A program made the translations under genes and the position numbers. A stretch of DNA of 20,678 bases. Source: a virus (lineage: Duplodnaviria > Heunggongvirae > Uroviricota > Caudoviricetes). A model generated the notes under the pieces. That model was not told the DNA's origin. It worked only from the letters and a program-made list of their open reading frames with translations, and did no database searches. Below are positions 2,806 through 20,678 of this stretch, piece after piece. Where the stretch lies: IMG/VR virus record IMGVR_UViG_2925939204_000008; one strand, 5' to 3'. Every line of letters starts with the position of its first letter. The first letter of the stretch is position 1.

Positions 2806-2813
2806 GATGATTC

Positions 2814-4659: not shown

Positions 4660-4673
4660 ACGCCCTCCAAATA

Positions 4674-4736: not shown

Positions 4737-4756
4737 TAAAGAAATGTAATAAACGC

Positions 4757-5449
4757 ATGAACATAGGAAACCGAGTCAGACAACTTCGCCAAGCGAAGAA
4801 CATGAAAATCGCCGATCTCGCTGAAGCGATAGGAGTAGATGCGGCGAACATCTCGCGCTTAGAAACGGGTAAGCAAAAACAATTTACCGAACAAACACTG
4901 AGTAATATTGCCAAGAGCTTAGGTGTTGATATTGCTGATCTCTTTACCTCTGCCCACAAAAGTAATACTGTATATAAAAACAGTAATAATGAGGATGTTG
5001 CGCAGGTGAAGGATGTGTTCCGTATTGAAATGCTGGATATCAGTGCCAGTGCGGGAAATGGCCTTATCCAGGGCGGTGATGTCATTGATGTGATTCATGC
5101 CATCGAATACAGAACTGATAATGCTGTATCAATGTTCGGCGGACGACCAGCCAATCACATCAAAGTTATCAACGTTCGTGGGGACAGTATGTGTCCAACC
5201 ATTGAGCCAGGAGATCTCATCTTCGTTGATGTCAGCATCAATCAGTTTGATGGTGATGGTATATATGTCTTTGGTTTTGATGACAAAATATACGTTAAAA
5301 GACTTCAAATGATTCCTGACAAACTGCTGGTGATTTCTGATAACCAGATTTACCGTGAATGGGGAATTACTAGCGAAAACGAACACCGATTCATGGTCTT
5401 TGGAAAGGTCTTAATCAGTCAGTCGCAAACCCTTAAGAGACATAATTAA
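4757..5449 (+). CDS. CI-like phage repressor, N-terminal HTH plus C-terminal LexA-like S24 peptidase domain
   Basis: 230 aa; N-terminal HTH (MKIADLAEAIGVDAANISRLETG); C-terminal S24 signature GDSM (Ser) and downstream KRL (Lys). Confidence 0.85.
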   Translation: MNIGNRVRQLRQAKNMKIADLAEAIGVDAANISRLETGKQKQFTEQTLSNIAKSLGVDIADLFTSAHKSNTVYKNSNNEDVAQVKDVFRIEMLDISASAGNGLIQGGDVIDVIHAIEYRTDNAVSMFGGRPANHIKVINVRGDSMCPTIEPGDLIFVDVSINQFDGDGIYVFGFDDKIYVKRLQMIPDKLLVISDNQIYREWGITSENEHRFMVFGKVLISQSQTLKRHN

Positions 5450-5468
5450 CCTCAATATCCCATCCATC

Positions 5469-5491
5469 GGCCACCGAAAGGTGGCTTTTTA
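5469..5491 (+). terminator. Rho-independent terminator after the repressor gene
   Basis: GC stem GCCACC / GGTGGC with GAAA loop followed by TTTTTA. Confidence 0.7.
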
Positions 5492-5502
5492 TTACCTATA
5501 AA

Positions 5503-5540
5503 TTTGCATATATAGCAAATATAACTTGCATATCTCGCAA
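5503..5540. promoter_or_regulatory. Two operator-like palindromes (TTTGC-N7-GCAAA and TTGC-N7-GCAA) upstream of the xis-int operon
   Basis: TTTGCATATATAGCAAA (5503-5519) and TTGCATATCTCGCAA (5526-5540) share the TTGC/GCAA half-sites seen in the cI-cro intergenic region. Confidence 0.4.
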
Positions 5541-5845
5541 TTTAATTTTATCTTTTGTTCCAGACCAACTACAGGATTACAACAAAATCTGGTTGCAACA
5601 CGGTGCATGTGTCGTAAGCAGTCAGTAAATGTCAAAAACGAACAGGCAGGACGCCCACGAAGTAGCCGCCTGGGGCATATGAAGTCCAGGATGATTCGTT
5701 AGCAACAAAAAAGCGCCCTACAGGACGCTTAGCTCTTTAACAATCTGGTCCCCATCAACAAGTAACTGATAACTTGAGGAGACCTTGAAAACGTCAATAT
5801 CACTCACTGGGCAGTAATGCCAAAAGCACCGGAGGCTGGAGCATA

Positions 5846-6151
5846 ATGACCACTTTTACCGACAAAGAACTGATTAAAGAAATTAAAGAGCGTATCAGCA
5901 GCCTTGACGTGCGAGACGATATTGAGCGCCGTGCTTATGAAATCGCACTCCTATCTCTGGAAGTAGAACCAGATGAACGCGAAGCTTATGAATTATTCAT
6001 GGAAAAGCGTTTCGGTGACTTAGTAGATCGTCGGAGAGCAAAAAACGGCGATAACGAATACATGGCATGGGATATGACTCTCGGTTGGATCGTCTGGCAG
6101 CAACGAGCAGGTATCCATTTTTCAACAATGTCACAACAAGAGGTGAAATAA
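5846..6151 (+). CDS. Hypothetical protein (101 aa), translationally coupled to xis
   Basis: ORF with acidic helical composition; stop TAA overlaps the xis ATG (TAATG at 6149-6153). Confidence 0.5.
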   Translation: MTTFTDKELIKEIKERISSLDVRDDIERRAYEIALLSLEVEPDEREAYELFMEKRFGDLVDRRRAKNGDNEYMAWDMTLGWIVWQQRAGIHFSTMSQQEVK

Positions 6152-6501
6152 TGGAGCCATACAGCCTCACACTCGATGAGGCCTGTCATTTTCTCAAGAT
6201 ATCCAGACCGACTGCCATTAACTGGATACGCACAGGGCGTCTTCAGGCAACACGCAAAGATCCCACTAAGAATAAATCTCCTTACCTCACAACACGACAA
6301 GCCTGCATTGCGGCTCTTCAGTCTCCGCTGCATACTGTCCAGGTGAGCGCGGGTGATGGCATAACAGAGGAAAGAAAATGTCACTCTTCCGCAGAGGTGA
6401 AATATGGTACGCCAGTTTCACATTGCCGAACGGTAAAAGATTTAAACAGTCTCTTGGAACAAAGGACAAAAGGCAGGCGACAGAACTCCATGACAAGCTA
6501 A
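6151..6501 (+). CDS. xis: Excisionase / AlpA-like DNA-binding protein
   Basis: [33 protein letters not shown] is a typical excisionase HTH; start chosen at the ATG at 6151; reading frame stays open to 6501, overlapping the int start by 124 nt, so the true end is uncertain. Confidence 0.65.
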
Positions 6502-7541
6502 AGGCTGAAGCATGGCGGGTCAGCAAACTTGGTGAAATACCTGATATAACGTTCGAGGAAGCGTGTGTCAGGTGGCTTGAAGAGAAAGCACATAAAAAAT
6601 CGCTGGACGATGACAAAAGCCGGATCGGATTCTGGCTTCAACATTTCGCAGGAATGCAACTAAGAGACATTACTGAATCAAAAATTTATTCAGCAATGCA
6701 GAAAATGACGAACCGGCGTCATGAGGAAAACTGGAAACTCAGGGCAGAAGCATGCAGAAAAAAAGGGAAACCTGTTCCAGAATACACGCCAAAACCAGCG
6801 TCCGTTGCAACGAAGGCTACGCATCTTTCATTTATAAAGGCCCTACTAAGAGCCGCAGAGCGTGAATGGAAAATGCTGGATAAGGCACCAATTATTAAAG
6901 TGCCTCAACCAAAGAATAAACGGATCCGCTGGCTGGAGCCCCATGAAGCACAAAGGCTGATTGATGAATGTCCGGAGCCATTAAAGTCTGTTGTTGAATT
7001 TGCACTGGCAACAGGCTTAAGACGCTCGAACATCATCAACCTTGAATGGCAACAAATAGATATGCAGCGCCGGGTGGCATGGATAAACCCGGAAGAGAGT
7101 AAATCAAACCGCGCAATTGGCGTTGCGCTGAATGATACTGCATGTCGCGTATTGAAAAAACAAATCGGGAATCATCACCGTTGGGTATTTGTGTACAAGG
7201 AAAGCTGTACCAAACCAGACGGAACGAAAGCGCCAACAGTAAGGAAGATGCGGTATGACGCAAACACAGCCTGGAAAGCGGCGCTGAGACGGGCTGGTAT
7301 TGATGATTTCAGATTTCACGACTTGAGACACACCTGGGCAAGTTGGCTGGTTCAAGCCGGAGTCCCGTTGTCAGTGTTACAGGAAATGGGAGGCTGGGAG
7401 TCTATCGAAATGGTTCGTCGATATGCTCACCTTGCACCTAATCACCTTACCGAACACGCACGGCAAATAGACTCGATCCTGAACCCATCGGTCCCAAATT
7501 TGTCCCAGTCAAAAAATAAGGAAGGTACTAATGATGTGTAA
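6378..7541 (+). CDS. int: Tyrosine recombinase, phage integrase (e14 IntE-like)
   Basis: 387 aa; N-terminus [14 protein letters not shown]; catalytic-type motifs HDLRHTWAS and VRRYAHL; good RBS GAGGAAAG. Confidence 0.9.
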
Positions 7542-7713
7542 CTTATTGATTTTAATGGTGCCGATAATAGGAGTGTAACACGCGATAAATCTTGTGTTCG
7601 GGTCTTCTTCTACGACCTTCGCAACTACCTGATTTAACGATTTTTACGCACACTGATAATCTGGCATTCATCATGCACATGATAAACGCCCCTAAACTTT
7701 AACGGGGTGGAAA

Positions 7714-8937
7714 ATGAAATACAAGCCGGATCAATACATCATATCTGATAGTTACGGAGTTTATTACGTCAGGATTTCAATTCCTGTATGGCTTCGTAAT
7801 GCATTTGGTGGAAGAAAAACTCTCGTCCGTAGTCTGAACACTTCCGATCTTCGTGTGGCTCGTAGGAAGCGTGATGTTATAGCCGACGAATTTCACCACA
7901 TCAGGCAAATTGCAGAGCCGCCAAAACCGGACAGCTTGCAGGACACGATCAGCTTTTTAAAGAGCGTGGCTAAGTACGCGAAAGCTGCCCCGAAAGCATC
8001 AGCTCCGATTATCTACCAATGCCCCTCTCTGAATAAGATGTTAGAGATTTACCTCACGCATAACGCTGATCGCCTGAAAATGGGAACATTAAGCAAGACC
8101 AGAAAAGCCGTTGAACTGTTCCTGAATTACCTGCGAAAGAAGGATGTTGAACTAAACGATATCAACCGTACCACCGTTACAGGCTGGCTTGATCATCTCC
8201 GAGAGACAAAGGCAGTCCAGACAGTGGCTAACTACCTATCAGCAATGGCAAACATTCTCGATCTTGCCTCTTCCCGATACCAGGACGCCCCACCGCTGGA
8301 AACTAACGTGTTCAGGGGGCATAAACTCAACACAGCGCAGAGCCGCCAGAGTTACGAGGCATTCACGGACGAAGAAATTACGAAGCTCATTAGCACGTTT
8401 AACAAGTTAGGAGAGGACGAATTAAGGGATGTGAGCGCCATCGCCGCTTATAGCGGAATGCGCATCAATGAAATAGCCAGTTTGAAATCTGACAATATCC
8501 GTGAAGTTGAGGGGGTGTTATGTTTCGAGGTGACGGAGGGTAAGACACGCAATGCGGCGCGGTTGGTTCCACTTCATAGTGCGATTAGAAAAATGGTTCT
8601 GGAACGCTGCCAGAAGCCGCACAACGGCTTTTTATTCTACCGTGCAAGTGTGACCAAGAGACAGGACGGCAAGCGCTCCTCATGGCACGTAAACCGCTTT
8701 GGACGGCTTAAACGCGATATTCTCCCAGGGCAGGAAAACAAGGTGTTTCACTCGTACCGCCATGCAGTGATCAGTAAGCTAAACGCCGCCGGAGTGGATG
8801 AATCTCGTATTGCCTTGCTCGCGGGTCACTCATTTGGAGAAACTGAGTCTTTCAAGACGTATTCGAAGAGTGTTCCTGAGCGTATTATGAAGGAGTTAGC
8901 GGGGTATATTGAATTAATAAATTACAACGTCCAGTAA
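7714..8937 (+). CDS. int: Tyrosine recombinase, integrase of genomic-island type
   Basis: 407 aa; C-terminal catalytic region with HSYRHAVIS and a downstream Tyr; long N-terminal arm/core-binding region. Confidence 0.85.
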   Translation: MKYKPDQYIISDSYGVYYVRISIPVWLRNAFGGRKTLVRSLNTSDLRVARRKRDVIADEFHHIRQIAEPPKPDSLQDTISFLKSVAKYAKAAPKASAPIIYQCPSLNKMLEIYLTHNADRLKMGTLSKTRKAVELFLNYLRKKDVELNDINRTTVTGWLDHLRETKAVQTVANYLSAMANILDLASSRYQDAPPLETNVFRGHKLNTAQSRQSYEAFTDEEITKLISTFNKLGEDELRDVSAIAAYSGMRINEIASLKSDNIREVEGVLCFEVTEGKTRNAARLVPLHSAIRKMVLERCQKPHNGFLFYRASVTKRQDGKRSSWHVNRFGRLKRDILPGQENKVFHSYRHAVISKLNAAGVDESRIALLAGHSFGETESFKTYSKSVPERIMKELAGYIELINYNVQ

Positions 8938-8941
8938 TTAA

Positions 8942-8961
8942 GGGGGGATTATACATCCCCC
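8942..8961. terminator. Hairpin between convergent int2 and the 92-aa gene (possible bidirectional terminator)
   Basis: GGGGGGAT-TATAC-ATCCCCC stem-loop; no strong U-tract on either side. Confidence 0.35.
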
Positions 8962-8967
8962 GATAAC

Positions 8968-9246
8968 TCATTTATTCCATTCGTTTTGAATTTGATTCTC
9001 AACTGCTGGCAAAAGGTTATACCAGGAAGCAGAGTTATTCTTAGCATCAACAACAATCAACTTATCATCGCTATCCATCGCTGCCCGAACTTTTCTGGCA
9101 GCCTCTTCAACCGAATAATTCGAATTTACGTACCAGTTCGACTCGGTAACTTTTGCCCAGTTGCCCAAGGCCTTGATAGCATCATGCACAGCAGCATAAT
9201 CTTTGGTTTTGATCAAGTCATAGGTTACAAACAAGTTGTTAGCCAT
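8968..9246 (-). CDS. Hypothetical small protein (92 aa)
   Basis: ORF at the distal end of the minus-strand operon; N-terminal beta-strand-like LFVTYDL. Confidence 0.5.
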   Translation of the reverse strand: MANNLFVTYDLIKTKDYAAVHDAIKALGNWAKVTESNWYVNSNYSVEEAARKVRAAMDSDDKLIVVDAKNNSASWYNLLPAVENQIQNEWNK

Positions 9247-9304
9247 TTAATTCTCTCCAGACATTCAAATGAATAAGCACCGCTATGGGCACTTTGAGAT
9301 ATTT

Positions 9305-9433
9305 TTATTTCTTAGCTTTCTTGGTAGGGATTTTGATAGTTTCAGTTATCGTAGTATCAGGATGTCGTTTAGCTTCAATGGGCTTAACAAACTGACCAGT
9401 TATCGCAGAACGAACTACTGTTTTCTTAGCCAT
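9305..9433 (-). CDS. Small basic protein (42 aa), not in the ORF track
   Basis: ATG at 9433 preceded by GAGGTG with 5-nt spacing; translation MAKKTVVRSAITGQFVKPIEAKRHPDTTITETIKIPTKKAKK. Confidence 0.3.
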   Translation of the reverse strand: MAKKTVVRSAITGQFVKPIEAKRHPDTTITETIKIPTKKAKK

Positions 9434-9468
9434 AAAAACACCTCATCTTGGAGATAAAGAGTGAACTG

Positions 9469-9488
9469 CTTACCCTTTTAAGGGTAAG
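9469..9488. terminator. Perfect hairpin downstream of the 616-aa gene
   Basis: CTTACCC-TTTTAA-GGGTAAG inverted repeat; no U-tract, so terminator function is uncertain. Confidence 0.3.
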
Positions 9489-9584
9489 GGACAAACGAAG
9501 CGGCGTCAAAGAAAAACACCACATATACACATCCTTTACAAACCGAGCGCAATATGTGGTATTCCCATGTGATTTACATCACAA

Positions 9585-11435
9585 TCATCCCCCTGTGGAT
9601 GACTGACCGCTCAAGGCTGATAGCGTAAGGCTACGAGTGAATGAATCCGCACTCGCTTTTGCAGACCAGTCGATATAGTCAGACAATCGAGAAACATCAC
9701 TTTGCAGAGTCAATCCCACTTGTGGATTCACTTGTAGGTTGAATATCGGGTTCAACGTGTACGCTGGCGCGTTGCTGCTGTTGAGCGACATTGCCGAAGC
9801 ACGGAGATTTTCCCCTGAAAGGCTGTATTGATTAGTCGCTGTCCCTGCTTGCTGATTACCAACGCCCAACCAATCCATGATAGCCGGAGCCACTGAACGG
9901 GTATCAAACCCCGTTTTATCCTGAATCCAATCGGCCGTAGCATTCGCAGAGCCACCCACAGCACCATCATAAAGATTTTGAACAGCAGGTTTCTTAGTAT
10001 CGCTAAACCATTCAGGGTGTTGTTGGCGGAGAGTACTGTTAAGATCAGACACTACGCTGGAGATTTCTCCAACAAAGCCCGTCACCTGTTTAGCCAGGTC
10101 GCCTAATCCCTCTCCGAGCATACCAGCAGATTCTGTTATCACTTTGGTGTTCTTCACCAGGTCGTCACCACCATCAGCAAAGCCTTTCATAAAGCCTGTA
10201 AACATGCTGTTATCAACGCCATTCATGAGATTACCCATCGCTACACTCAGATCACCATATGCAAGAGTTTGCTTGATCTGCTCCTCGTTAAGAGTTTGAC
10301 CACTATCGACAAGCTGTTTCAGCGTCTTGTTATATTCTGCACCGTTGTTCATGAACATATCGGTGTAGTGCATCAGGTCATCACCTAAACTCTCTATAAG
10401 CGTACCAATCTGAGCCTGTGACATACCACGGCGTTGCCCTTCATTGGTAACTGCTTGAAGTAGATCAGCAGGACGATCCTGGAAGGATTTAATCTGTTCT
10501 TTGCCCCATCCAAACTTATTCATAATAGAAGTGATACCACCATCGCCGCCTTTCCATTCGCCATTTTTAAACTGGCTATCGTTCAGGGTCATAGCGATAC
10601 GTTCACGTACATCTTTGAAATTGTCCGTCACTTTATCGACATTGGCGCTATCAACTCCGTGTTGCTGCCCCCATGCCACCATCGTTTTAACTACGTTAGG
10701 ATTAGTCTTAACAAGTTCCGATTTTCTAACCAAGTCAAGATTTTCATTCCCTTTGTCAACAATTCGCTGCCCCACTCCGAGGGAGCCAGCCGTTAACGCA
10801 AGGCTTCCTAATACCCCACCACCGACGATAGGAGCATTCCCGCCCTTCTGAGCCTTTAGCTTAGTGGCTGCTGCGGCATACTGGGTACGCTGTGCCTGTG
10901 TCACTTTCGCTTGTTGTGCGGCTTCTCTGCGTAACAGGGTTACACGCTCGCGTATAAGCGCATTCATACGTTGAGAGCTAATATTCCCCTTCGCAAACTC
11001 TTCGCTTTGCTGATGAATATAACGTAACGCTTCATACTGAGATTTAGGATCAAGCCCGTATTTACCTTTAATTCCTGACACTTGTAGCCCTGCATGGCGA
11101 AGTTTAAGCTCGGCTGTCTCTTGGCGCTTCTGTAGCTGCTGCTTCGCTTTCAGATTGGCCTTTTCATCCCTGGCTTTCTGCTTCTCCGCCGCACGTTGGG
11201 CTTTCATTTCCTTCGTATCACGAGGCTTATCATTAAAACGTGCATCATCGGCTTGTTGACGGGCTTTCTGTCTGCGCTGCTTCAGATCCTGGAAGCGAAT
11301 CTTGGGATCGGCTATTTTCTGGAAGTGCTTTTGAAGGTTATCCGCTGCGGCCTTAGCCTCTGCAATACTCCCTTTGTCAACGGTGAAAGTTACGGTGTTG
11401 ACGATCTTACTTGTATTAATCTCAAGCATCGCCAC
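9585..11435 (-). CDS. Large structural-type protein, tape-measure-like (coiled-coil N-terminus, Gly-rich hydrophobic segments)
   Basis: 616 aa; K/R/Q/E-rich coiled-coil N-terminus then APIVGGGVLGSLALTAGSLGVG-type segments; GTG at 11435 or ATG at 11429 as start; function inferred from composition only. Confidence 0.4.
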   Translation of the reverse strand: MAMLEINTSKIVNTVTFTVDKGSIAEAKAAADNLQKHFQKIADPKIRFQDLKQRRQKARQQADDARFNDKPRDTKEMKAQRAAEKQKARDEKANLKAKQQLQKRQETAELKLRHAGLQVSGIKGKYGLDPKSQYEALRYIHQQSEEFAKGNISSQRMNALIRERVTLLRREAAQQAKVTQAQRTQYAAAATKLKAQKGGNAPIVGGGVLGSLALTAGSLGVGQRIVDKGNENLDLVRKSELVKTNPNVVKTMVAWGQQHGVDSANVDKVTDNFKDVRERIAMTLNDSQFKNGEWKGGDGGITSIMNKFGWGKEQIKSFQDRPADLLQAVTNEGQRRGMSQAQIGTLIESLGDDLMHYTDMFMNNGAEYNKTLKQLVDSGQTLNEEQIKQTLAYGDLSVAMGNLMNGVDNSMFTGFMKGFADGGDDLVKNTKVITESAGMLGEGLGDLAKQVTGFVGEISSVVSDLNSTLRQQHPEWFSDTKKPAVQNLYDGAVGGSANATADWIQDKTGFDTRSVAPAIMDWLGVGNQQAGTATNQYSLSGENLRASAMSLNSSNAPAYTLNPIFNLQVNPQVGLTLQSDVSRLSDYIDWSAKASADSFTRSLTLSALSGQSSTGG

Positions 11436-11619
11436 CGCCTTTTTTACTCACCAGATAATTAAGTGCATCTGATACACTACGCCCACGATGTAATAACTGA
11501 CGTAGATGACCGTGATCTATTTCAAGCACACGACACACTCCCGCCAGATTTAATAACTCTTCTGCTGTTTCAGCATTTACGGCGAGGTGAAGCCCCGCGC
11601 TTTTTACAATCACTTGCAT
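11422..11619 (-). CDS. Hypothetical small protein (65 aa)
   Basis: ATG with upstream GAGGAAAG; overlaps the start of the 616-aa gene by 14 nt. Confidence 0.45.
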   Translation of the reverse strand: MQVIVKSAGLHLAVNAETAEELLNLAGVCRVLEIDHGHLRQLLHRGRSVSDALNYLVSKKGGGDA

Positions 11620-11738
11620 TTATCTTTCCTCATTCTGGAAATAAAAAAGGGCGGGAACACTGGGGAGATGTTCCCAACGTTCACACGCCCTATTCAATAG
11701 CCTGATTATTTCCAGCGGGTCAGGCTCCCGCTTGCTCA

Positions 11739-12770
11739 TTAAGCAGTGATGGTGATCTTCACCTGCATACCTAACGCATGGTTCACTGGTAATGCGCTGT
11801 TTTCGTGCATAACGTGGTAAGCATCGCCGCGCTCGCTCAGGTAGCCCCAAGAGTAGTATTCAGCAGGTGCAGCATCGATCAGCGCAAAGTTACCAGAGGC
11901 AGCGCCGTAGATGTTCTGATAAGCATTTGTGCCTTTACTGAACACCGGAACCGCCACCATGTCAGCATCATCTGGCATCTGTGCAAGGATCAGCGGATCT
12001 GTCACTTTAACAATGTCGATAGGCGCACCAGGTAGGCTAAACGTACTAACACCAGGGAGAAGCTCGTGACGCTGGTAGAATAGGTTACGGTCGTCATATG
12101 GCGCTACATACTGGAACGCCTTAGACATACTGTCAGAGAAGCGAATCTGGCTAAATGCAGCAGGTTTAGCGAATACGATCACTCGTTCAATCTGTCCAGC
12201 CAATCCACCTGCGGCAGCCTGAACTTTGTCTAAGATCGCATCAAAATCCTGTGCCGCTGTCGCTGTGCTCACGCTGGCTGTCATTGGCACCACACCGAAC
12301 AGTTCAGCATAAGAGATCAGTAGGTCATCAGTTGCAGGCGTATAAACTTCACCTTTGAACAGAGCACGGGCCAGGTAAGACTCACGGGTACGCAGATAAG
12401 CAATCTTATGTTTGCCAGTGTATTCGGTGTACAGGTCGGTAACGGTTTGCTCGTAGTCCGTTCCCTGCACTCTGCGGCCTTGTACGTCTACAGGTTTAAA
12501 CTCATCTTCCCTTGCAAACCAAGGAATCTCGATAAGGTATTCTTTGCCATTCTGACGCGCGGTAGTGTCGTGGTTTGATGAATAACGGCTCTGCGGGGTG
12601 TTAAACAGGCTGTAGTTATCATCCAGAAGCTGTGTCACCACCACTTTCGGATTCTGAACACCTACCCCGTCGAATAGGTCGAGGGCATTCATAAGATAGT
12701 TACGTTCCGGCAGAGCCTGGAAGATTGGCGCTAAATCGACCATCTCACGCCCAATTGCGATTTTACTCAT
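11739..12770 (-). CDS. Putative major capsid protein (lambda gpE-like size and position)
   Basis: 343 aa (lambda gpE is 341 aa), directly downstream of a ~119-aa gene as in the lambda D-E pair; assignment from size, order and composition, not from confirmed similarity. Confidence 0.45.
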   Translation of the reverse strand: MSKIAIGREMVDLAPIFQALPERNYLMNALDLFDGVGVQNPKVVVTQLLDDNYSLFNTPQSRYSSNHDTTARQNGKEYLIEIPWFAREDEFKPVDVQGRRVQGTDYEQTVTDLYTEYTGKHKIAYLRTRESYLARALFKGEVYTPATDDLLISYAELFGVVPMTASVSTATAAQDFDAILDKVQAAAGGLAGQIERVIVFAKPAAFSQIRFSDSMSKAFQYVAPYDDRNLFYQRHELLPGVSTFSLPGAPIDIVKVTDPLILAQMPDDADMVAVPVFSKGTNAYQNIYGAASGNFALIDAAPAEYYSWGYLSERGDAYHVMHENSALPVNHALGMQVKITITA

Positions 12771-12786
12771 TATTTATCTTCCTTGA

Positions 12787-13146
12787 TTAAGAGGTGAAGA
12801 ATGGACGGCATACGAACCCTTTGGATTCGAGCGTGGTGATAGCTGCGGCGTGATTAGCTGCGTGCAGGTTGTCGGCTTTCAGTGCTACGAAGCTACCAAC
12901 ATTAGGCGCACGTAGGACATTCACGGTTTTACCGTCGCCAGCACTCACGAAATCACTTACCACCACAAAGGCATCATCGCCGGAGGTGTATAGAGCGCCA
13001 TCAGCGCCGATAACATCGCCGCATTCAATATCTGCTGGCAGGTCGAAAACACGGCCTTCTACGACTGCAAAAGAATCAGTGGCGTAGCTCAATACGTCAG
13101 TGAAACTCTTACGAATTGGGAAAAGTTCGGTTAGGTCTACAATCAT
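12787..13146 (-). CDS. Putative head decoration or small capsid-associated protein (gpD-like position)
   Basis: 119 aa, Gly/Ala/Val-rich, immediately upstream of the capsid-like gene. Confidence 0.3.
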   Translation of the reverse strand: MIVDLTELFPIRKSFTDVLSYATDSFAVVEGRVFDLPADIECGDVIGADGALYTSGDDAFVVVSDFVSAGDGKTVNVLRAPNVGSFVALKADNLHAANHAAAITTLESKGFVCRPFFTS

Positions 13147-13358
13147 TGTTGTTTGATTTCCTTGGATTTGATTGCGATCCGTTCCTGCATACTAAGTTGA
13201 GGTGTGTCCTCAGAAGGGAAATACTGGTCTACAGCTTTTTCTATTTCTTCAACGGTACATCCTGCCATTTCAGCCACTTTAGCTATTAACTCAGGATTAA
13301 CTTGAATCACTTCGGATTTGTATTTTAGGATTCGGTCGCGATTGTTTATTAAGAACAT
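13143..13358 (-). CDS. Hypothetical small protein (71 aa), first gene of the structural operon
   Basis: ATG at 13358 preceded by GAAGGAA; stop overlaps the next start (ATGA at 13143-13146). Confidence 0.45.
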   Translation of the reverse strand: MFLINNRDRILKYKSEVIQVNPELIAKVAEMAGCTVEEIEKAVDQYFPSEDTPQLSMQERIAIKSKEIKQQ

Positions 13359-13433
13359 TGTGTTGTTCCTTCGCGTTATAACTGCGTTTATCCTTCCATT
13401 GATAACGGAAGTGTTACATGCAGATTGTTAAAA

Positions 13434-13451
13434 AGGGGCGATTAAGCCCCT
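13434..13451 (-). terminator. Intrinsic terminator on the minus strand between the regulatory and structural operons
   Basis: Minus-strand RNA AGGGGC-UUAAUC-GCCCCU followed by UUUU. Confidence 0.45.
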
Positions 13452-14024
13452 GGAGAATATGCCCTTGTTAGAAAGCATTCTGTTAAAATCATTTTCGTTT
13501 CGGAGGATTATGATGTTAAAGAATGGCTTCTTGAAAAAATGAAGGGCGCAACTGTTACGAATAACAGAAGTAGGATCGCCCGTCATTGCTCCCACTTCAA
13601 AACAGAAGCCCTTCTGTCATGGCGAGAAGTGGGAATGGAATCTCAATATCACCACTGGAATAGTAATAAGAGATTGCCAGCCTGAACGTAACTACCGCTG
13701 ACGGCGTTTATTCAGTCTGACTACATTCATCCTAACGGAATGAATGAGCAAAGAGCGAATGCCCTTTCTGAAAAAGTCGGAGATGCGCGGTGATTGCGAT
13801 GCAATACCAACACAACGAGATATTACATCCCGCGCATTCCTTCGGAACAAACAAGACAAAGAACCAACACTTTCAGAAATAGCATTCAGAGGGAGAGAAT
13901 GCCGCTATGGGAACGGCATTCTCAAGGAGTGCGTATTGACATACGAGGGTGAAGTGATTCGAATACTTACCCTATAACTCATTATGACACATATAGCACA
14001 TAATGTCAAGACATTTAGTAACTT

Positions 14025-14363
14025 TTATGTTATGGCGCATTCTTCCGCGATCTGGATGGAAAGCTCTCCGAGTTCAACGGTGATGTATTGCAGAGAGCAA
14101 GCAAGCTCCTCAAGGTCATTAGCTACACGCCACGCTTCTTCTGGTGTGATCGAACTGCCGTCACGCTGCACCAAACGAGCTACAGACGTTTGCAGATGTT
14201 CAAGGGCAGTGATTGCCTGTTCAGTGTATTGCACCGCTTCCAGAAGCGCGGAGGGCGTTCTCTCACGCCACGCTGCATTAACAAGCTGTAAGGTTGGTAA
14301 ATGCCAGTTGTCGTGGAAAGAGTTAATTAGGGTGTTCACTGTGTCCATAGTTTTATTATTCAT
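14025..14363 (-). CDS. Hypothetical protein (112 aa from the ATG at 14363)
   Basis: ORF track gives 14025..14459; the ATG at 14363 overlaps the upstream stop (14356-14358) and is the likelier start. Confidence 0.45.
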   Translation of the reverse strand: MNNKTMDTVNTLINSFHDNWHLPTLQLVNAAWRERTPSALLEAVQYTEQAITALEHLQTSVARLVQRDGSSITPEEAWRVANDLEELACSLQYITVELGELSIQIAEECAIT

Positions 14364-14739
14364 TGTTTTCCTTGTCGTCAAAGAGAATATCAAACTCTTG
14401 TGTGTGCTGGGATAGCCCCCAGGTTTGACAATACCCAATATAATCGGCGTAATGTTCAAATCCTGCTATTTGCCATTTCTTGAGATGGCTACTATCTATA
14501 ATATATTCGCGTCTGCGTCGTGGTTTGTAATAAACGTTATCCGTTGACGATAGAACATCCTGCAATAGTTCAAACTCTAATCCATTTGGTACTACTGCGG
14601 GATATTCTTTAATAGTTGTCACCATCTCACCAGGAATAGACTCTCGTGCGAGGTCTTGTAGAGAAGAGGTGTATTTACGTTTGCTGATGCGTGTGGCTTT
14701 TTCGATTCTAACAAGGTTACTTCGTTCTTTTCGTCCCAT
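14356..14739 (-). CDS. Hypothetical protein (127 aa)
   Basis: ORF in operon context; basic N-terminus; no recognisable motif. Confidence 0.45.
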   Translation of the reverse strand: MGRKERSNLVRIEKATRISKRKYTSSLQDLARESIPGEMVTTIKEYPAVVPNGLEFELLQDVLSSTDNVYYKPRRRREYIIDSSHLKKWQIAGFEHYADYIGYCQTWGLSQHTQEFDILFDDKENNE

Positions 14740-14843
14740 TCATTCCTCGTAGAGGGGAAACTCCTTGTCTGGTTATAACGTAAACGCCATAGAATATGGT
14801 GAACCACCATAAAGCAGTAATCATAAAAGTTTCCCGATTGTTG

Positions 14844-15305
14844 TTATTTAGTCGTAAGTGTAATGTCGCATCCTTTACCGCGACCAGGTTTGATTAACGT
14901 AGTAGTTAGATAATCATTGCGGCGAAGCTTGCGAATCGCACTGGATACAGTTGCCACACTTATCCCCAACACTATCGCTATTGACTCCTGTTTCACATTT
15001 GTTAATGATGGCAGTGATTCGAGGTGCATTAATACCAGACGTTCCGAAGGAGACAGATTCTTATCGTGAAGATGTGGGGATGTCATTTTACATTCTATCT
15101 CTTTCGGTGGCTTCATCGCTGCATTGAATAGCGTAACAAGAGCATTAGCGTAACTTGATTCACCTCGCTCAGCGTAAACATCTACAAGTTCTTGCGCTTG
15201 TTCGAATGCAACACCTCTTTCAACTTCTGGATTTAATAAACTGGCAAGATGGATGATGTTAAGATCACGTTCGTTGTATTGTTTGGGTATAACCGTTTTC
15301 AGCAT
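14844..15305 (-). CDS. Winged-helix (MarR-like) DNA-binding protein
   Basis: C-terminal wHTH-like LSPSERLVLMHLESLPSLTNVKQESIAIVLGISVATVSSAIRKL. Confidence 0.5.
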   Translation of the reverse strand: MLKTVIPKQYNERDLNIIHLASLLNPEVERGVAFEQAQELVDVYAERGESSYANALVTLFNAAMKPPKEIECKMTSPHLHDKNLSPSERLVLMHLESLPSLTNVKQESIAIVLGISVATVSSAIRKLRRNDYLTTTLIKPGRGKGCDITLTTK

Positions 15306-16039
15306 AAATGTTCTATTTCCTCGTAGATTGGTTTAAGTTTTGGATTCTTCTCTGTGTCCAGGTATCCGTTAATAAGTAGCCATCTGATTTTCGGATGTTG
15401 TGAAACTGGTAGATTCTTTTCAGGATTCTCCCATTCATCCCGATAACCCTCAAGAAAGTTTAAATTAACTGGCTCTATCTTAATATCTTTAGCTGGAATG
15501 GAGGCGGGTTTCTTCGTAGGCATTTTCTTTGGCTTCTCCGGCTTCGGATCTGCTTTGGCCTCTTCTGGCACTGACTGCTGTTTTTCTTCCTCTGGCGCTA
15601 CGTCTTCTTTAGCTTTGCCAAACACGGGATGTTTCAGACAATCTACCCATTCCGGCGCGGAATCACGTTCCATCGCATTACGATCACGTTCAAAGGTGAA
15701 GTTTTGCGGCGTGAGTGGCGTTATAGTCCATTGGTTAGAGCGCTTTGGCTTATTACTGGCGATCAGTCCGATTTTCTTCAACTTTGCAACAATACGTGTT
15801 GCCGTAGCCGAGCTGACACCAATACTTGCACCAAGTTGATCAATGTCATCGTAATAAGTACCGCCCAACTCTATCGCAAAGCGATAATAACGATGGCGCA
15901 TTCTGACGTAAAACTGCTTATCAGCAGGAGACAGGGACTCTGTTACGCCTGTTTTAAGATTGGTGATCCTGGTGCATTCGTTAAATGCGTCTTCGGTGTT
16001 GGTGAAACTAAAAGCCTTACTGTTTATAATGTCAGTCAT
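15299..16039 (-). CDS. DNA-binding protein with lambda O-like architecture (N-terminal wHTH, K/P/E-rich linker, C-terminal domain); possible replication initiator
   Basis: SPADKQFYVRMRHRYYRFAIELGG...GVSSATATRIVAKLKKIGLI resembles the replication protein O N-domain by recall; long low-complexity linker. Confidence 0.4.
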   Translation of the reverse strand: MTDIINSKAFSFTNTEDAFNECTRITNLKTGVTESLSPADKQFYVRMRHRYYRFAIELGGTYYDDIDQLGASIGVSSATATRIVAKLKKIGLIASNKPKRSNQWTITPLTPQNFTFERDRNAMERDSAPEWVDCLKHPVFGKAKEDVAPEEEKQQSVPEEAKADPKPEKPKKMPTKKPASIPAKDIKIEPVNLNFLEGYRDEWENPEKNLPVSQHPKIRWLLINGYLDTEKNPKLKPIYEEIEHLC

Positions 16040-16053
16040 GTTAGGGTGTATCC

Positions 16054-16230
16054 TTATTTGGTAGAACGTTCTCCGTTCTTAATTGATGTGGAAAGTGTGG
16101 TTGCAGCGTCAATTAACATCTCCTGCACTGTTACGCCTCTCGCTCGCGCCTCTTTGAACAAAGTACTAAACACTTCATCCGGCAGTTTTACGAATGTTCC
16201 GGCTGGTTTCTTCTTCTGGATTTCGCTCAT
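16054..16230 (-). CDS. Ribbon-helix-helix (Arc/CopG-like) DNA-binding protein, 58 aa, not in the ORF track
   Basis: ATG at 16230 preceded by AAGGAG; MSEIQKKKPAGTFVKLPDEVFSTLFKEARARGVTVQEMLIDAATTL has a beta-strand then two helices as in RHH repressors. Confidence 0.5.
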   Translation of the reverse strand: MSEIQKKKPAGTFVKLPDEVFSTLFKEARARGVTVQEMLIDAATTLSTSIKNGERSTK

Positions 16231-16248
16231 TTGGTTTCTCCTTCTGGT

Positions 16249-16497
16249 TTATTCGTTGGTGGTGGTTTCAGCCTGTTCAGCTTTCCATTGATCGTAAAGT
16301 TCGATTCCTTTACGCAATCTTTCAGCGTGTTCGAAATATCCTTGCCGTTGTGCGGCTGCTCGCTGGCTGTTTATTGCATTTCGCGTCTGGCTTCCGGCCT
16401 TTAAAGCCTCGAAGACAAGTTCTGGATTAAAATACTTAATTTTGGTTCTCCTTGCGTTAGAAACACAGAAACACCATCCAGGGAGAACGTTAATCAC
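16249..16497 (-). CDS. Hypothetical protein, first ORF of the regulatory operon (start uncertain)
   Basis: ORF track uses a GTG start at 16497; an ATT codon with AAGGAG 7 nt upstream is an alternative. Confidence 0.35.
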   Translation of the reverse strand: MINVLPGWCFCVSNARRTKIKYFNPELVFEALKAGSQTRNAINSQRAAAQRQGYFEHAERLRKGIELYDQWKAEQAETTTNE

Positions 16498-16592
16498 GTT
16501 GCCTGATAGTGCGGTGTAAGTTGGATTGTTTGCGTTAGGCTGGATGCCTGAGATGAGGACGGGATGAATGCTTTCATTACCCTACATCATTT

Positions 16593-16672
16593 ACTTTAAC
16601 ATGAAATGATTTAAGTGTCAACACTTATTTAAATCCCTTTCAAATTATAGCGCATTTCCACGTTGTGATCAA
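16593..16672 (-). promoter_or_regulatory. Two tandem sigma70-like promoters directed into the minus-strand regulatory operon
   Basis: TTGATC (16667-16672) 17 nt TATAAT (16644-16649), and TTGACA (16616-16621) 17 nt TAAAGT (16593-16598), read on the minus strand. Confidence 0.4.
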
Positions 16673-17223
16673 CTCATTCATGTCATCATAAAACGCGGTC
16701 TATCGCTTTCTAACAGGTTTGAAAGCCTGAGAGTTGCAATCCCCTCCCTATCCTCTCAAATTCGCTCTCAGCGCGTCTGGGGCGTTCCGTTTGCGTTACC
16801 GCCGCCCTCTGGCACTTACTCCCGAAACCAATAGCACAACTACTGAGGGATAACGTTAGTTATCAGGATAGTAGGTGATGGTATTGGATTGAGGCTGGAT
16901 GAACTGGAGCCATCAGCGACCAGTGAATCCTTAGCCGTGGGCTAACTTTGCATGGATGAATGCGGAGCATGGAAGACAGGCAGAAGTTATGCTGAAAGAC
17001 ATTGCGCACACGGCGCATAGCTTCTGTGCCTCGTTTCACGAGGGCGAAGCCCTGGCACAATCACAGACAGATGCGCTACGCTGCGTCGTGAGCGGCTGAC
17101 CGAGTAGCCCCCAAAGGCGAATCAGGTCACTTGCCAGGCGATACGCGCCAGCAAAGCGAATCTTTAACAAGATCTTCTAAAAGCTCTCTTTTAGAGATCG
17201 CTTTTAGAATCTCTTTGTATAGA

Positions 17224-17305
17224 ACATCAATTTGATGTGTAGTTTGCCGATCCATACATCAATTTGATGCGTATCCCATGCATCTATACATCATTTTGAT
17301 GTATA
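17224..17305. repeat. Three 18-bp direct repeats at exactly 32-bp spacing, each with an internal palindrome ACATCAA(t)TTGATGT
   Basis: ACATCAATTTGATGTGTA (17224-17241), ACATCAATTTGATGCGTA (17256-17273), ACATCATTTTGATGTATA (17288-17305). Confidence 0.8.
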
Positions 17306-18061
17306 ACGCCCCCAACTAACTCTGATTCATCCATGCAACAACACTAAGAGTAACGAGAGGTTATTCCTATCAAAACAACACGATAATCATAGCTAAGCCT
17401 ATCTTAAATGACAGGTAAAGATTGCCGTTGTTACATGGGTAAAGTTGCCATAGTCAGCAAGATAGTAACCATCACTCACTTTGCGTAAAGCCTTGCGCCA
17501 TGCGGCTCACAGCGATCATTGTCCACAATGAGGAGTTTCATGACAGGTGCAATGTGCTGAACGAGTTTTCTAAAATGAAACGATGTTTCTTTTTCATGCC
17601 AAAATCCACCAATTGATTAGCATTCTAATCATTTCATTACACACTCAGTTTCAAGTGCATAAACTCCGCATAATTTGTGCATACAGGCAGGTTAGCCCCG
17701 CCCTCGCCTAACAACCTTACATTTATCAGATTTAAATCAATGAGATAGACAATAACCACACACAAGCATTGGTAGTGTGATGTTCCGCTGTTGCCGCTGT
17801 TCTTCGTGCAGAGTTGAGGATTTGGCAATGTTCAAACACATGTTTATAAATGCCAACATCATGATTTTGTTCAAGATATTTAGAGGAGAAGAAATTTTCG
17901 ATCTGGAGGCGGCCCTGGAGGTCGTTAAGCACTGGACGCAATCGCGCCATTTACCACACACAAGACAGTTCGATTTTTGATCATTTATATTGCAACTTAC
18001 TGAAATTGATCATATTGTTTGTTTCGTTGAGTTTAGATGTGTGTCTTTATGGGAGGGTAAA

Positions 18062-18622
18062 TTGAACAGAGCAGTAGTGTTAGACGAACAGCAAGCCAAA
18101 GCGATCAGGGAGTGGCTAAACGCTCATAACAAGAGCCTGATAGCTGACGTTACGTTAATGATGCAAGCCGCTGTACTGCGTGTGGGGGATGCCGTAGCGT
18201 TACGCTTCGACGAAGTGATCAACGGTGAGATTGACATAGAAGAACAGAAGACAGGGAAGCGTAAAGCCCTCACTCTCCCTGCTCCAGTGGTGCAGATGAT
18301 TGCTCGTCGCCGTGCTGAGTATCCGCATGATGTGCATGTGTTCAGAAGCCAGCGTAACCGATCAATGAACAAGCAAGCGCCTGTACGACGCGAAGAAGTG
18401 AGCAAGCAGATCGCAGAGGCCGCTAAAGCTATCGGTATTCATGGCACTGTATCAGCTCACAGCTTCCGCAAAGCTGGCGGGAATGCCATCTACAAGCGTT
18501 CAGCAAACAACATCGCTTTAGCTATGACCGTGCTTAATCACAGCAACATCACTGACACCAGGCGCTATCTGGATTTAGACAAGCAAGCCGTTAGCCGTGT
18601 GATCAATGAGATGGACTTATAA
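18062..18622 (+). CDS. Small tyrosine recombinase, catalytic domain only (FimB/FimE-sized or truncated integrase)
   Basis: ORF open from 17990; likely start TTG at 18062 after GGGAGGG, or GTG at 18041; motifs ALRFDEV, HSFRKAGG and TRRYLDL fit the R...H-x-x-R...Y catalytic pattern. Confidence 0.65.
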   Translation: MNRAVVLDEQQAKAIREWLNAHNKSLIADVTLMMQAAVLRVGDAVALRFDEVINGEIDIEEQKTGKRKALTLPAPVVQMIARRRAEYPHDVHVFRSQRNRSMNKQAPVRREEVSKQIAEAAKAIGIHGTVSAHSFRKAGGNAIYKRSANNIALAMTVLNHSNITDTRRYLDLDKQAVSRVINEMDL

Positions 18623-18632
18623 GGAGATACGC

Positions 18633-18830
18633 ATGAAACGCTTGCTTGTGCTGACGCTGACAGTAATGCCAGTCCTGGCGAATGCCGGACAGATAACCCT
18701 GATTCTCAGTGACGAACAGGAGACAGACAACGCGAAGATTTGCGTTTATTCCAACGCCAACTTTACGGAGACAGTGACGCTCAGGCCGTCGCAGCAATGC
18801 CGCTACACAATGACCTTTGAAGAGGAGTAA
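18633..18830 (+). CDS. Small secreted or periplasmic protein with signal peptide (65-aa precursor)
   Basis: ATG at 18633 with AAGGAGA 5 nt upstream and 10 nt after the recombinase stop; MKRLLVLTLTVMPVLANA signal-like N-terminus; two Cys in the mature part. Confidence 0.5.
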   Translation: MKRLLVLTLTVMPVLANAGQITLILSDEQETDNAKICVYSNANFTETVTLRPSQQCRYTMTFEEE

Positions 18831-18888
18831 CAATTGAAGAAGGAAGACAAGCAGATAACCAGCGTGGTCTGGTGCGGTGTATAAGTAA

Positions 18889-19368
18889 TCACTGCTTGGA
18901 ATCACGTAGGATCAGAGACAATATCCACCACCAGCGACGACGCAGCCAACTAACATCACTGAACAGCTTCCCATCAGATGTAGTAACATACACCCCTCCG
19001 CGATGATGCACCTTATTATGGTGAGCCTTATTGATGAATGGTACTTCTAAGATCATTTCATCACGGGCTTTTAATCGGCGTGGCAACATGGGGCTGATCA
19101 TGTATTCATCACAATGTTCGTTAGAACAATCGCTAAGGCGTCCGCTGGCGGTTACTATGCCCGCCGAACTTATCGTCACATCATGGGCGCTTTTGTTGGA
19201 AACATAAATTCTGTCTTCATACTGATCGCAACCTAAGAAAAGGCGTAGATCTGTTCTGGATTTTAATAGCTGGAAAATGGATAGTGCAAACCCAGCCCAT
19301 GCGGCAAGCATGGTCAGATTATCAACATTAAGCAACCAATCTATCAAAGTTCCATCCCTTGAGAGCAA
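18889..19368 (-). CDS. Hypothetical membrane-associated protein (start uncertain)
   Basis: Hydrophobic helix LTMLAAWAGFALSIFQLL near the N-terminus; Trp/Arg-rich C-terminus WLRRRWWWILSLIL; TTG start at 19368 or ATG at 19311. Confidence 0.45.
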   Translation of the reverse strand: MLSRDGTLIDWLLNVDNLTMLAAWAGFALSIFQLLKSRTDLRLFLGCDQYEDRIYVSNKSAHDVTISSAGIVTASGRLSDCSNEHCDEYMISPMLPRRLKARDEMILEVPFINKAHHNKVHHRGGVYVTTSDGKLFSDVSWLRRRWWWILSLILRDSKQ

Positions 19369-19571
19369 AGATAATTAGCAATTCCTTGATGCTGTAAGTC
19401 AGTCAATTGGAAGTAGGAATCGAGTACGATTATGACTTGCGTGGCATTATCAGCATGAACAGAACCAGGGGTATCAGGAGGAAGCGAACCATCAAGGATG
19501 GCAGTAAAGTAACCCGATGAGATAGAGACTTTCAGGAAGCAATTGGGTAAAAATTCGTAACGTTCACTCAT
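19344..19571 (-). CDS. Hypothetical small protein (75 aa from the ATG at 19571)
   Basis: ATG at 19571 preceded by GAGGTGG; ORF track gives a longer version to 19658. Confidence 0.4.
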   Translation of the reverse strand: MSERYEFLPNCFLKVSISSGYFTAILDGSLPPDTPGSVHADNATQVIIVLDSYFQLTDLQHQGIANYLCSQGMEL

Positions 19572-19734
19572 AACCACCTCATTTTCAGATTGTTTCTGCA
19601 AAGCGTACATTACGAATTTTATTCTTTTACCGCATTTCAAACCAAATGACAATTCCATTGAATCAGTTGAGGATTTTAACCCTCACCGAAGATAACATAA
19701 CCTCAAAATGTCTATCGCTTCATTGAGGAAATGT

Positions 19735-20508
19735 ATGTCTACTGAAAATTTTGTCACCTTCTGGTTAGCCAGAGCCGATCTTCCATACTTTCTTGAACCC
19801 CATGAATTTTACGTTTCTGAGGCAAGGCGGCGGCTTCTCTCTCAGTTTGGTGATTTAGAACAAGAAGCAGAGAAGAGAGAACAACAGTTTTTGGAGACTA
19901 CTGCTGAGTATTTTGATCAAGATAACGATGACCCAATGGCGGCCTACGAGCAAGCCTATCATGAGGGAATTTATTATGTACGGTCGCTTCTGGAGATGCA
20001 AAATACCGTATTGTTGGCGTTGACAGCAGGTATGTATCATCAGTTTGATAAAAAACTAAGAGAACATACTATCAAAGAGCTAAGTAATTGGTGTGAAAGA
20101 GAATTGATTACCCCCATGATCTGGAATTTAACTTTCCATCAGCTAATTGATTTGCTCGAATGGATTGGCCTCACAATCAATGGAACCGAATACGGAGAAA
20201 GGATAAAAGCCTGTAACTTGGTGGTAAACGTATACAAGCATGGAGACGGCCCTGCACATCAAACACTATCAGTTGATCATCCTGAGTATTACCCAAACCC
20301 CACCGATGTTAGAGGCACGCAGATTGTCCCTAACCATGACGATTTACATGTCTCAGAAGATCAATTTGTAGATTTTGCTAACGCAATAACTGCTTTCTGG
20401 AACGCGGTTCCAGAAAATTGTTACTACTCAGATCTTAGAGAAGAACCCAAATGGTTGGATAGAGTTGTGACAAGATTCGAAAAAAAGCATAGGGGCAATA
20501 GGGGCTGA
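19735..20508 (+). CDS. Hypothetical protein (257 aa), function unknown
   Basis: ATG at 19735 with GAGGA 6 nt upstream (ORF open from 19708); no recognisable motif. Confidence 0.5.
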   Translation: MSTENFVTFWLARADLPYFLEPHEFYVSEARRRLLSQFGDLEQEAEKREQQFLETTAEYFDQDNDDPMAAYEQAYHEGIYYVRSLLEMQNTVLLALTAGMYHQFDKKLREHTIKELSNWCERELITPMIWNLTFHQLIDLLEWIGLTINGTEYGERIKACNLVVNVYKHGDGPAHQTLSVDHPEYYPNPTDVRGTQIVPNHDDLHVSEDQFVDFANAITAFWNAVPENCYYSDLREEPKWLDRVVTRFEKKHRGNRG

Positions 20509-20519
20509 TTAGCCCCATC

Positions 20520-20678
20520 TCAAAACATCAAGTTTGCAGCTCGCGCCAACTTGATTTCCTCTCGCTCTTCCTGCTTCTTAGCAAGCCAGGCTTTCCCCTC
20601 TGGTGTTGCCAGGAATTTACGGGCGTGAATCTTACGGTTGTTGCGCTTCGTGGCTGCTTTTTGGTTAGCTTTTGACAT
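20520..20678 (-). CDS. Small basic protein, possibly partial because the ATG is the last three bases of the window
   Basis: Minus-strand MSKANQKAATKRNNRKIHARKFLATPEGKAWLAKKQEEREEIKLARAANLMF with stop at 20520-20522; upstream context not visible. Confidence 0.3.
   Translation of the reverse strand: MSKANQKAATKRNNRKIHARKFLATPEGKAWLAKKQEEREEIKLARAANLMF

Follow-up and report, generated by a model that had tools for sequence, protein, structure and literature searches.

What do three small genes at the edge of an integrated element do, and do they act together? The question is raised by IMG/VR virus record IMGVR_UViG_2925939204_000008 (Caudoviricetes), a 20,678-nucleotide (nt) stretch of DNA that was analyzed as a whole and is referred to here as the window. 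Near its end lie genes for a 152-amino-acid (aa) membrane protein and a 75-aa acidic protein and, divergent from these, a gene for a 257-aa acidic protein (Table 1). Our preferred answer, to which we give an even chance of being right, is that they form a 1.6-kb accessory cassette of two modules within a satellite-like element. The 257-aa protein would be a stand-alone anti-phage effector, and the 75-aa/152-aa pair would act at the membrane.

The window is 100% identical to eight complete Escherichia coli chromosomes (e.g., AR_0128). All three genes coincide with the RefSeq/PGAP calls in these genomes, and the three open reading frames (ORFs) described in a first-pass annotation, which had been made from the sequence alone, were found as described. 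The membrane gene starts with the TTG at position 19347, giving 152 aa; the full ORF (18889–19368, minus strand) has an alternative TTG at 19368 that would give 159 aa. The start at 19347 is backed by alignment, as 16 of 19 membrane homologues begin there and lack the extension of the 159-aa form. The stop codon of the 75-aa gene overlaps this TTG by 4 nt (TTGA), and from this overlap the 75-aa gene is judged to be translationally coupled to the membrane gene. Ahead of the 75-aa start lies a Shine-Dalgarno sequence, GAGGTGG, which does not vary among five orthologous loci. The 163-bp spacer between the 75-aa gene and the divergent 257-aa gene is conserved in E. coli, Citrobacter, and Raoultella, and presumably both promoters are located in it. 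The promoter and terminator scan gave no excess over shuffled expectation, and Rfam gave no family match in the window and tRNAs only in the related loci. A 19-nt inverted repeat (19550–19568/19602–19620, 84% complementary) spans the start codon of the 75-aa gene, such that the 5′ leader pairs with codons 2–7. Because the changes in orthologues break these pairs (five loci show pair-breaking and no compensatory substitutions), an RNA structure at this start was rejected and no structure is claimed for the repeat. Inverted repeats flanking the cassette (I4 and I8) were dropped too, as their frequency is by estimate that of chance.

The three genes were found by blastn as one block of DNA in other genera. 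Identity was 92.8% over positions 18835–20466 in Citrobacter sp. NCU1 (locus L008), 85.6% over 18888–20454 in Klebsiella quasivariicola (L109/L110), and 78% over 18880–20435 in Raoultella terrigena (L002). The recombinase beside the cassette in those loci was 43% or 34% identical to that of the window, or was replaced by a serine resolvase. Just outside the cassette, the 65-aa protein was 45% identical in the Citrobacter locus, compared to 96–97% for the cassette proteins there. The cassette DNA is thus conserved while its flanks diverge, and therefore the three genes behave as one mobile cassette. E. coli XYEH3934 (L107) matched the backbone only (88% over 17476–18623 and 93% over 20592–21399), and its slot held a 136-aa protein, a YecR lipoprotein, and a 126-aa protein instead of the cassette. 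By these comparisons, the slot between the recombinase gene and the 52-aa gene is variable cargo, and the 1.6-kb block moves between diverged backbones, which agrees with the accessory position at an island end that the first-pass annotation had assigned to these genes. Of 5426 complete E. coli genomes, 8 carried the cassette. Homology to housekeeping or known prophage structural proteins, or conserved core-genome synteny, which would have spoken against such cargo, was not found.

The block also comes apart. The 257-aa homologue occurred without the pair in Pantoea (L009, 80% identity), where it adjoins a ParM-like gene, and in the accessory region of a prophage (L114, 86% identity), where its neighbors, as read from ORF translations, are SRAP, UmuD-like, DinI-like, and tail-fiber genes. 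It was also alone in L115 and L116, and the pair was absent from the other 77 species loci and the 25 other viral loci of the 257-aa family. Conversely, the membrane gene was found without the other two genes in Ewingella (L111, 79% identity) and in a metagenome (L112, 70%), and Gibbsiella carries the pair, with a truncated membrane gene, and no 257-aa homologue. Judged by these occurrences, the cassette consists of two separable modules, the 257-aa gene and the 75-aa/152-aa pair.

The 257-aa protein matched PHROG 19541 (function unknown) over its full length (E 3e-72). Its family comprises 57 protein clusters from Proteobacteria and was found at no fewer than 157 species loci and on 26 IMG/VR viral contigs. 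The best Pfam signal in a scan to E 1 was a sub-threshold one to DUF1977 (E 0.15). The search of PADLOC-DB v2 gave no match to E 1 for the six proteins encoded in 18062–20678 or for one operon-embedded homologue, and neither the 257-aa protein nor the membrane protein was matched by tblastn in 50,697 phage genomes. The 257-aa protein had been described as having no recognizable motif; this stands for Pfam, NCBIfam, and PADLOC, which were all empty, and falls for PHROG 19541 and for the strongly conserved motifs presented below.

To describe the neighborhoods, ORFs were clustered around the best 80 of the at least 157 species loci. In 42 of these 80 loci, the homologue lay between a ~924-aa protein and two proteins of ~687 aa and ~411 aa, all on one strand. 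The overlap of its start with the upstream stop codon was 4 nt in 36 loci and 1 nt in 3 loci, and its stop overlapped the downstream start in 22 loci. The ~924-aa neighbor is an MmeI-family methyltransferase (Pfam MmeI_Mtase, E 8e-108; PADLOC REase_MTase_IIG, E 3e-271), and the downstream neighbors are a DEAD/ResIII helicase and a T5orf172/MUG113 protein (Pfam, PADLOC). Of note, this four-gene operon, in the order methyltransferase, 257-aa homologue, helicase, T5orf172 (e.g., L024, 5233–12047), is present in alpha-, beta-, and gammaproteobacteria. Where a gene was inserted between the homologue and the helicase, it was Abi_2/AbiD-like (L021), RhuM (L063), or Fic (L060). Solo copies had as neighbors an OLD-type ATPase-TOPRIM protein, a UvrD-like fragment, a reverse transcriptase with PRTase-CE, ABC-3C components, a methyl-directed restriction endonuclease, and an NYN protein. 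In its gene content, the neighborhood of the 257-aa family is that of a conflict or defense gene. Genes for an MmeI-type methyltransferase, its helicase, and a T5orf172 protein were absent from the E. coli window, the largest ORF of which encodes 616 aa.

MmeI homologues without an endonuclease of their own have been described, with YeeB and YeeC on either side of YeeA (Morgan et al. 2009, PMC2731913). The corresponding dnmA-yeeB-yeeC operon was studied in Bacillus subtilis, where it gave no phage protection and works as a methyltransferase without a 257-aa-type gene (PMC9973331). In the same paper, Vibrio crassostreae is cited as a case in which deletions of dnmA and yeeB alter phage sensitivity, and it is remarked that an uncharacterized family might be an extra member of the locus in some bacteria. 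Searching the literature and the DefensePredictor supplements by accession turned up no mention of the proteins studied here.

Structure prediction had been proposed in the first-pass annotation as a check on all three proteins. The AlphaFold2 model of the 257-aa protein had a predicted local distance difference test score (pLDDT) of 92 and a predicted template modeling score of 0.86, and that of the 152-aa protein, from a shallow alignment (pLDDT 47), was unusable for fold search. The 257-aa protein is predicted to be all-helical, with a HEPN-like fold and a non-canonical site; the predicted helical bundle was most similar to HEPN domains. This similarity found no confirmation by other methods. 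Foldseek of the model against PDB and BFVD gave nothing significant, and the profile search of PDB with the family alignment gave only an irrelevant match (E 0.03). The hhalign probability was 0.1% against an Abi_2/AbiD-like alignment built from neighboring genes and 0.5% against a DUF4145 protein; the latter is not significant, and the motif columns align in it.

The polar residues H23, R33, H102, K106, R109, E115, N165, Y167, K168, and H169 are conserved, with His, Lys, Arg, Asn, and Glu residues invariant across relatives that are 30–40% identical, and G170 and G172 are conserved as well. The acidic-x3-[KR] motif is present, with position 105 acidic (70 Asp, 6 Glu) and R109 in 76 of 76 sequences. 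In the second motif, V164-N165-V-Y-K-H169, His and Asn are invariant, and Val takes the place of the Rx4-6H Arg throughout the family. The order of the motifs, D/E105-x3-R109 followed by N165-x3-H169, is that of HEPN domains (Anantharaman et al. 2013, PMC3710099), families of which are often embedded in restriction-modification (R-M) operons and sometimes lack the canonical Arg (same study). The spacing C-R-x-x-phi-N-x3-H is identical in an Ewingella protein assigned by Pfam to DUF4145, a member of the HEPN clan. Strict membership in HEPN is not established, because the canonical motif and profile similarity are both lacking. With this predicted fold and these residues, nuclease activity of the 257-aa protein is plausible.

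The second module resembles no known family. Near its N terminus, the 152-aa protein carries a single segment of moderate hydrophobicity (19-residue Kyte-Doolittle mean 1.49), which is clearly hydrophobic in distant homologues, followed by a beta-rich middle and a C-terminal Arg/Trp-rich amphipathic helix (RRRWWW) that is conserved across the family. The membrane anchor and Trp/Arg-rich tail noted on first inspection are therefore real. The charges flanking the segment and the positive-inside rule suggest an N-out/C-in topology. Family motifs are NxS(P/A)H, LPxRxxAR, and RRxWWW. All 28 close homologues are from Enterobacterales, and an exhaustive profile search of 1.84 billion proteins returned 25 cluster representatives of the same architecture. 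The protein had no PHROG match, and a Pfam scan of 24 family members gave nothing, with one member touching SieB at E 0.12. The 75-aa protein is acidic and cytosolic (isoelectric point 4.2) and had neither a PHROG match nor a match to a DNA-binding domain. It forms 9 clusters in 5.8 billion proteins, all from Enterobacterales and at least 69% identical.

Homologues of the membrane gene occupy cargo positions beside integrases, AlpA, tRNAs, a KAP NTPase, and a PLD nuclease. Some follow a GNAT-type gene with a small gene in front of it, and others follow a DUF4145 HEPN gene, so that the upstream partner of the membrane gene changes or is absent between loci. In Ewingella, the 3′-terminal ~40 bp of the 75-aa gene is kept, and the partner was therefore swapped by recombination inside that gene. 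Of note, a gene for a zinc-ribbon and DUF4145 protein lies immediately 5′ of the membrane homologue in this locus (L111, 6415–7558). Upstream of distant membrane homologues, ~1 kb of conserved, apparently non-coding DNA was observed (L088, 3400–4950). Similar stretches, in which the same spurious ORF translations recur, are present in L089, L091, L092, L094, L101, and L105; they had no Rfam match, and tRNA-Gly or tRNA-Ser is close by in some of these loci.

A tRNA-Thr gene (thrW, beside proA) is annotated in the genome ~580 bp past the end of the window. A direct repeat of 20 nt of its 3′ end is located between two integrase genes of the window (Table 1). In locus L001, this 20-mer (9656–9675) equals the tRNA sequence at 23359–23378, and the chance expectation of a 20-nt tRNA match is estimated at ~1e-5. 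From the repeat and the position of the tRNA, the cassette therefore occupies the end nearest the tRNA in a 13.7-kb integrative element that spans window positions 7555–20678 and ~0.6 kb beyond. Both the island end and the adjacent recombinase reported by the first-pass annotation are accordingly confirmed. The backbone of the element encodes a 407-aa integrase, the 186-aa tyrosine recombinase, the 52-aa basic protein, and a helix-turn-helix protein, together with a DUF6945 replication initiator (Rep). All the island variants seen, from E. coli, Raoultella, and Gibbsiella, keep the 52-aa gene beside the tRNA-Thr attachment (att) site, and the product of this gene may be a small DNA-binding or excision factor. 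The capsid protein had no close relative in the 50,697 phage genomes, and no portal or terminase was recognized among the proteins of the element. Raoultella has the same architecture, with a 37-nt att repeat beyond its integrase. The element, which has an integrase, a 20-nt att repeat, a length of 13.7 kb, a Rep, and a capsid protein, looks like a phage satellite; it may represent an undescribed family of capsid-encoding satellites.

Table 1. Features of the window discussed in the text, with the evidence for each.
Feature	Position (nt)	Strand	Basis
Direct repeat (20 nt) of the tRNA-Thr 3′ end, integrase-side end of the element	7555–7574	+	Exact 20-mer match
614-aa protein, 'tape measure' PHROG/TolA-like	9585–11429		Profile match
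Lambda-E-type major capsid protein	11739–12770		Backbone gene of the element
186-aa tyrosine recombinase, catalytic domain only	18062–18622	+	Pfam Phage_integrase E 4e-16, phrog_216, PGAP
65-aa signal-peptide protein, just outside the cassette	18633–18830	+	phrog_4641 (function unknown)
1.6-kb cassette shared between island backbones	18835–20466		blastn
152-aa single-pass membrane protein	18889–19347	-	ORF and PGAP WP_058685487
75-aa acidic protein	19344–19571	-	Internal ATG at 19571, PGAP WP_131727973
Divergent intergenic region	19572–19734	.	Sequence
257-aa acidic protein, PHROG 19541	19735–20508	+	ORF 19708/19735–20508, RefSeq call
52-aa very basic protein, isoelectric point 10.8, right edge of the slot	20520–20678	-	ORF, PGAP

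Several further observations concern the element and its surroundings. Variants of the element are carried by Raoultella, Klebsiella, and other E. coli strains. Positions 1–7541 of the window hold a second integrase gene (6378–7541) and a decayed prophage, which share the tRNA site of the element and are arranged in tandem with it. The decayed prophage has tail sheath and tube genes and truncated terminase genes, and its invertase-type recombinase adjoins a tail-fiber fragment. Within the element, ~1.5 kb of non-coding DNA (16500–18062) lies beside the 186-aa recombinase, which is FimB/FimE-like in size, and part of it (16805–17226) is conserved at 86–89% in other island variants, where it carries no annotation. 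A perfect 14-nt inverted repeat (16948–16961/17325–17338) flanks 363 bp near this recombinase. An invertible switch at this repeat was considered and rejected, as no inverted orientation was found in eight E. coli genomes.

The cassette is most likely anti-phage cargo. In the reading that we prefer, with confidence that is evenly balanced, the first module is a stand-alone member of a helical HEPN-like family that is otherwise built into MmeI-type operons. The 257-aa protein would act against phages, either as an effector or as a second-line component; most probably it would be a metal-independent nuclease, with H169, N165, and K168, plus D105 and R109, as candidate active-site residues. It would act alone, as stand-alone RloC relates to R-M-embedded PrrC. 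The second module might be a membrane-acting exclusion or abortive module regulated by its small 75-aa partner, and the two modules might also interact.

A number of findings weigh against this reading. None of the three proteins had a Pfam, NCBIfam, or PADLOC match. The canonical Arg of Rx4H is Val164 in the 257-aa protein, and a helical turn before it, where 64 of 76 relatives have Arg161, the E. coli protein has Asn. The net charge of the 257-aa protein, -18, is unusual for an RNA-binding enzyme. Part of the invariance of the motifs in the 80 genome loci is built in, as two motifs had served as search patterns; it is independent in the protein-database set. The pair has no fold or family and a very narrow distribution, and its small gene is dispensable in close relatives. 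Finally, the null result in B. subtilis means that a defense role even of the host operon is not general. What the first-pass annotation had said of defense-type cargo thus stands insofar as the 257-aa family is tied to restriction-like operons and conflict systems; the three genes are not demonstrably one system. Its more specific suggestions of abortive infection, superinfection exclusion, or a toxin-antitoxin (TA) module found no supporting result, and the PADLOC scan was empty.

The operon position of the family can also be read differently, with the 257-aa protein as an accessory or regulatory subunit that lacks catalytic activity, such as an adaptor linking methyltransferase and helicase, and the E. 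coli copy as a stranded orphan, a decoy, or an anti-restriction factor. DNA mimics and anti-restriction proteins are often acidic, and so, strongly, is this protein. The canonical HEPN Arg is missing from it, its gene overlaps the methyltransferase and helicase genes translationally in 42 of the 80 loci, and the B. subtilis operon methylates without such a gene (PMC9973331). We nevertheless consider a subunit of this kind unlikely. His, Lys, Arg, Asn, and Glu residues that remain invariant at 30–40% identity fit an enzyme better, the window has no MmeI-type partner, and many independent lineages keep intact solo copies, carried by prophages, plasmids, and islands, which speaks for a family able to function autonomously. 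A role of the genes in the satellite-like element's own life cycle, through helper interference, capsid redirection, lysis timing, or regulation, is very improbable. The element is compact and encodes its own capsid protein, and one source labels a 257-aa homologue (P0019) 'tail assembly chaperone'. However, the cassette is missing from island variants that share the backbone, and it is therefore dispensable for the element. Moreover, most members of the 257-aa family lie in chromosomal restriction-like operons without phage genes, and there was no fold match to viral proteins in BFVD and no match in the 50,697 phage genomes.

The remaining alternatives concern the pair and its relation to the 257-aa gene. 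It is possible, if doubtful, that the pair is a TA-like addiction or superinfection-exclusion module of the island, unrelated to the 257-aa gene. Such a module would account for a two-gene operon with a 4-nt overlap, in which the small acidic protein is encoded 5′ and the membrane protein 3′, for its cargo position in an integrative element, and for the distant membrane homologues encoded after a toxin-like gene of GNAT type, itself preceded by a small gene. The overlap and the sizes of the two genes would suit a type II TA module. In contrast, no homology to TA, Abi, or Sie families was detected (none in PADLOC; SieB of Pfam at E 0.12 in 1 of 24 members), and the 75-aa protein had no DNA-binding domain match. 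The membrane gene also persists without the 75-aa gene in close relatives (L111, L112), which would not be expected if the membrane protein were a toxin in need of its antitoxin. A single three-component defense system, in which the pair senses or anchors, the 257-aa protein is the effector, and divergent control is shared, appears distinctly unlikely to us. The three genes were inherited as one 1.6-kb block in four genera and at least three backbone types, the 163-bp control region is common to all of them, and the DUF4145 gene of Ewingella is a second HEPN-type neighbor of this membrane protein. However, the 257-aa gene, the membrane gene, and the pair each occur without the remainder, the single genes at high identity, and all co-occurrences are in close relatives and therefore represent roughly one evolutionary event. 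An extended version of the defense reading, that the 257-aa family is the unrecognized fourth and catalytic part of DnmA/YeeA-YeeB-YeeC systems, would make it a HEPN-derived nuclease with a non-canonical active site that can also work on its own once captured by satellites or prophages and that in E. coli is wired to a new membrane-anchored sensor pair as a new three-gene abortive-infection system. We regard this version as improbable to much the same degree.

Should the 257-aa family prove active in defense, a widespread family (at least 157 species) without a Pfam or PADLOC model would be added to the known ones. It could then help to explain the disputed operons of MmeI homologue, helicase, and GIY-YIG protein, since the gene set that gave the null result in B. 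subtilis lacks this gene. If there is no phenotype, the cassette is one more set of orphan island genes. The cassette also marks a cargo hotspot in capsid-encoding, satellite-like islands of Enterobacterales that could be mined for more systems; this island family was not described in the satellite papers retrieved. The locus is of value mainly because it points to an unannotated family associated with operons of MmeI homologue, helicase, and T5orf172 protein.

Known systems resemble the two modules and their carrier to different extents. RexAB, SieB, and Imm-type exclusion systems likewise combine a short membrane protein with a small partner in a mobile accessory region. They differ from the pair in that there is no sequence similarity, in that the 152-aa protein has a single transmembrane segment and a beta-rich cytoplasmic domain rather than a multi-pass channel, and in that the partner gene of the 152-aa family varies. 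The carrier resembles the defense hotspots of P4-like satellites and phage-inducible chromosomal islands (de Sousa et al. 2023, PMC10085698), which are also small tRNA-integrated elements with an integrase and a variable slot. In satellite and prophage hotspots, as Rousset et al. 2022 are cited in PMC13092281, the content of the slot differs between similar elements, as it does here. Unlike the cargo of those hotspots, that of the cassette had no match to a known defense system. By inspection, the element matched none of four described satellite families, as it has a lambda-E-type capsid protein and no recognizable portal, terminase, AlpA, Psu, or Sid.

Closer parallels exist for the 257-aa protein. 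In 42 of the 80 species loci, its homologue lies inside the gene set and order of the DnmA(YeeA)-YeeB-YeeC operons. Those operons were described with three genes, whereas the homologue is a fourth, between methyltransferase and helicase, and the E. coli copy has no such operon alongside. The predicted bundle and the order of motifs are like those of the HEPN proteins of R-M operons (PrrC/RloC, Abi2/AbiD/AbiF, AbiU2, DUF4145; PMC3710099). The 257-aa protein differs from these families by the absence of a profile link, by Val164 in place of Arg, and by having no ABC-ATPase or regulatory domain. Compared to a minimal HEPN domain, it is about twice the size and strongly acidic. The PrrC-type loci reported in that study have Abi_2, RhuM, or Fic in the same operon slot, and the operons of the 257-aa family are alike in this respect. 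Like PrrC and RloC, the 257-aa family is embedded in an operon in most species and stands alone on prophages and islands elsewhere.

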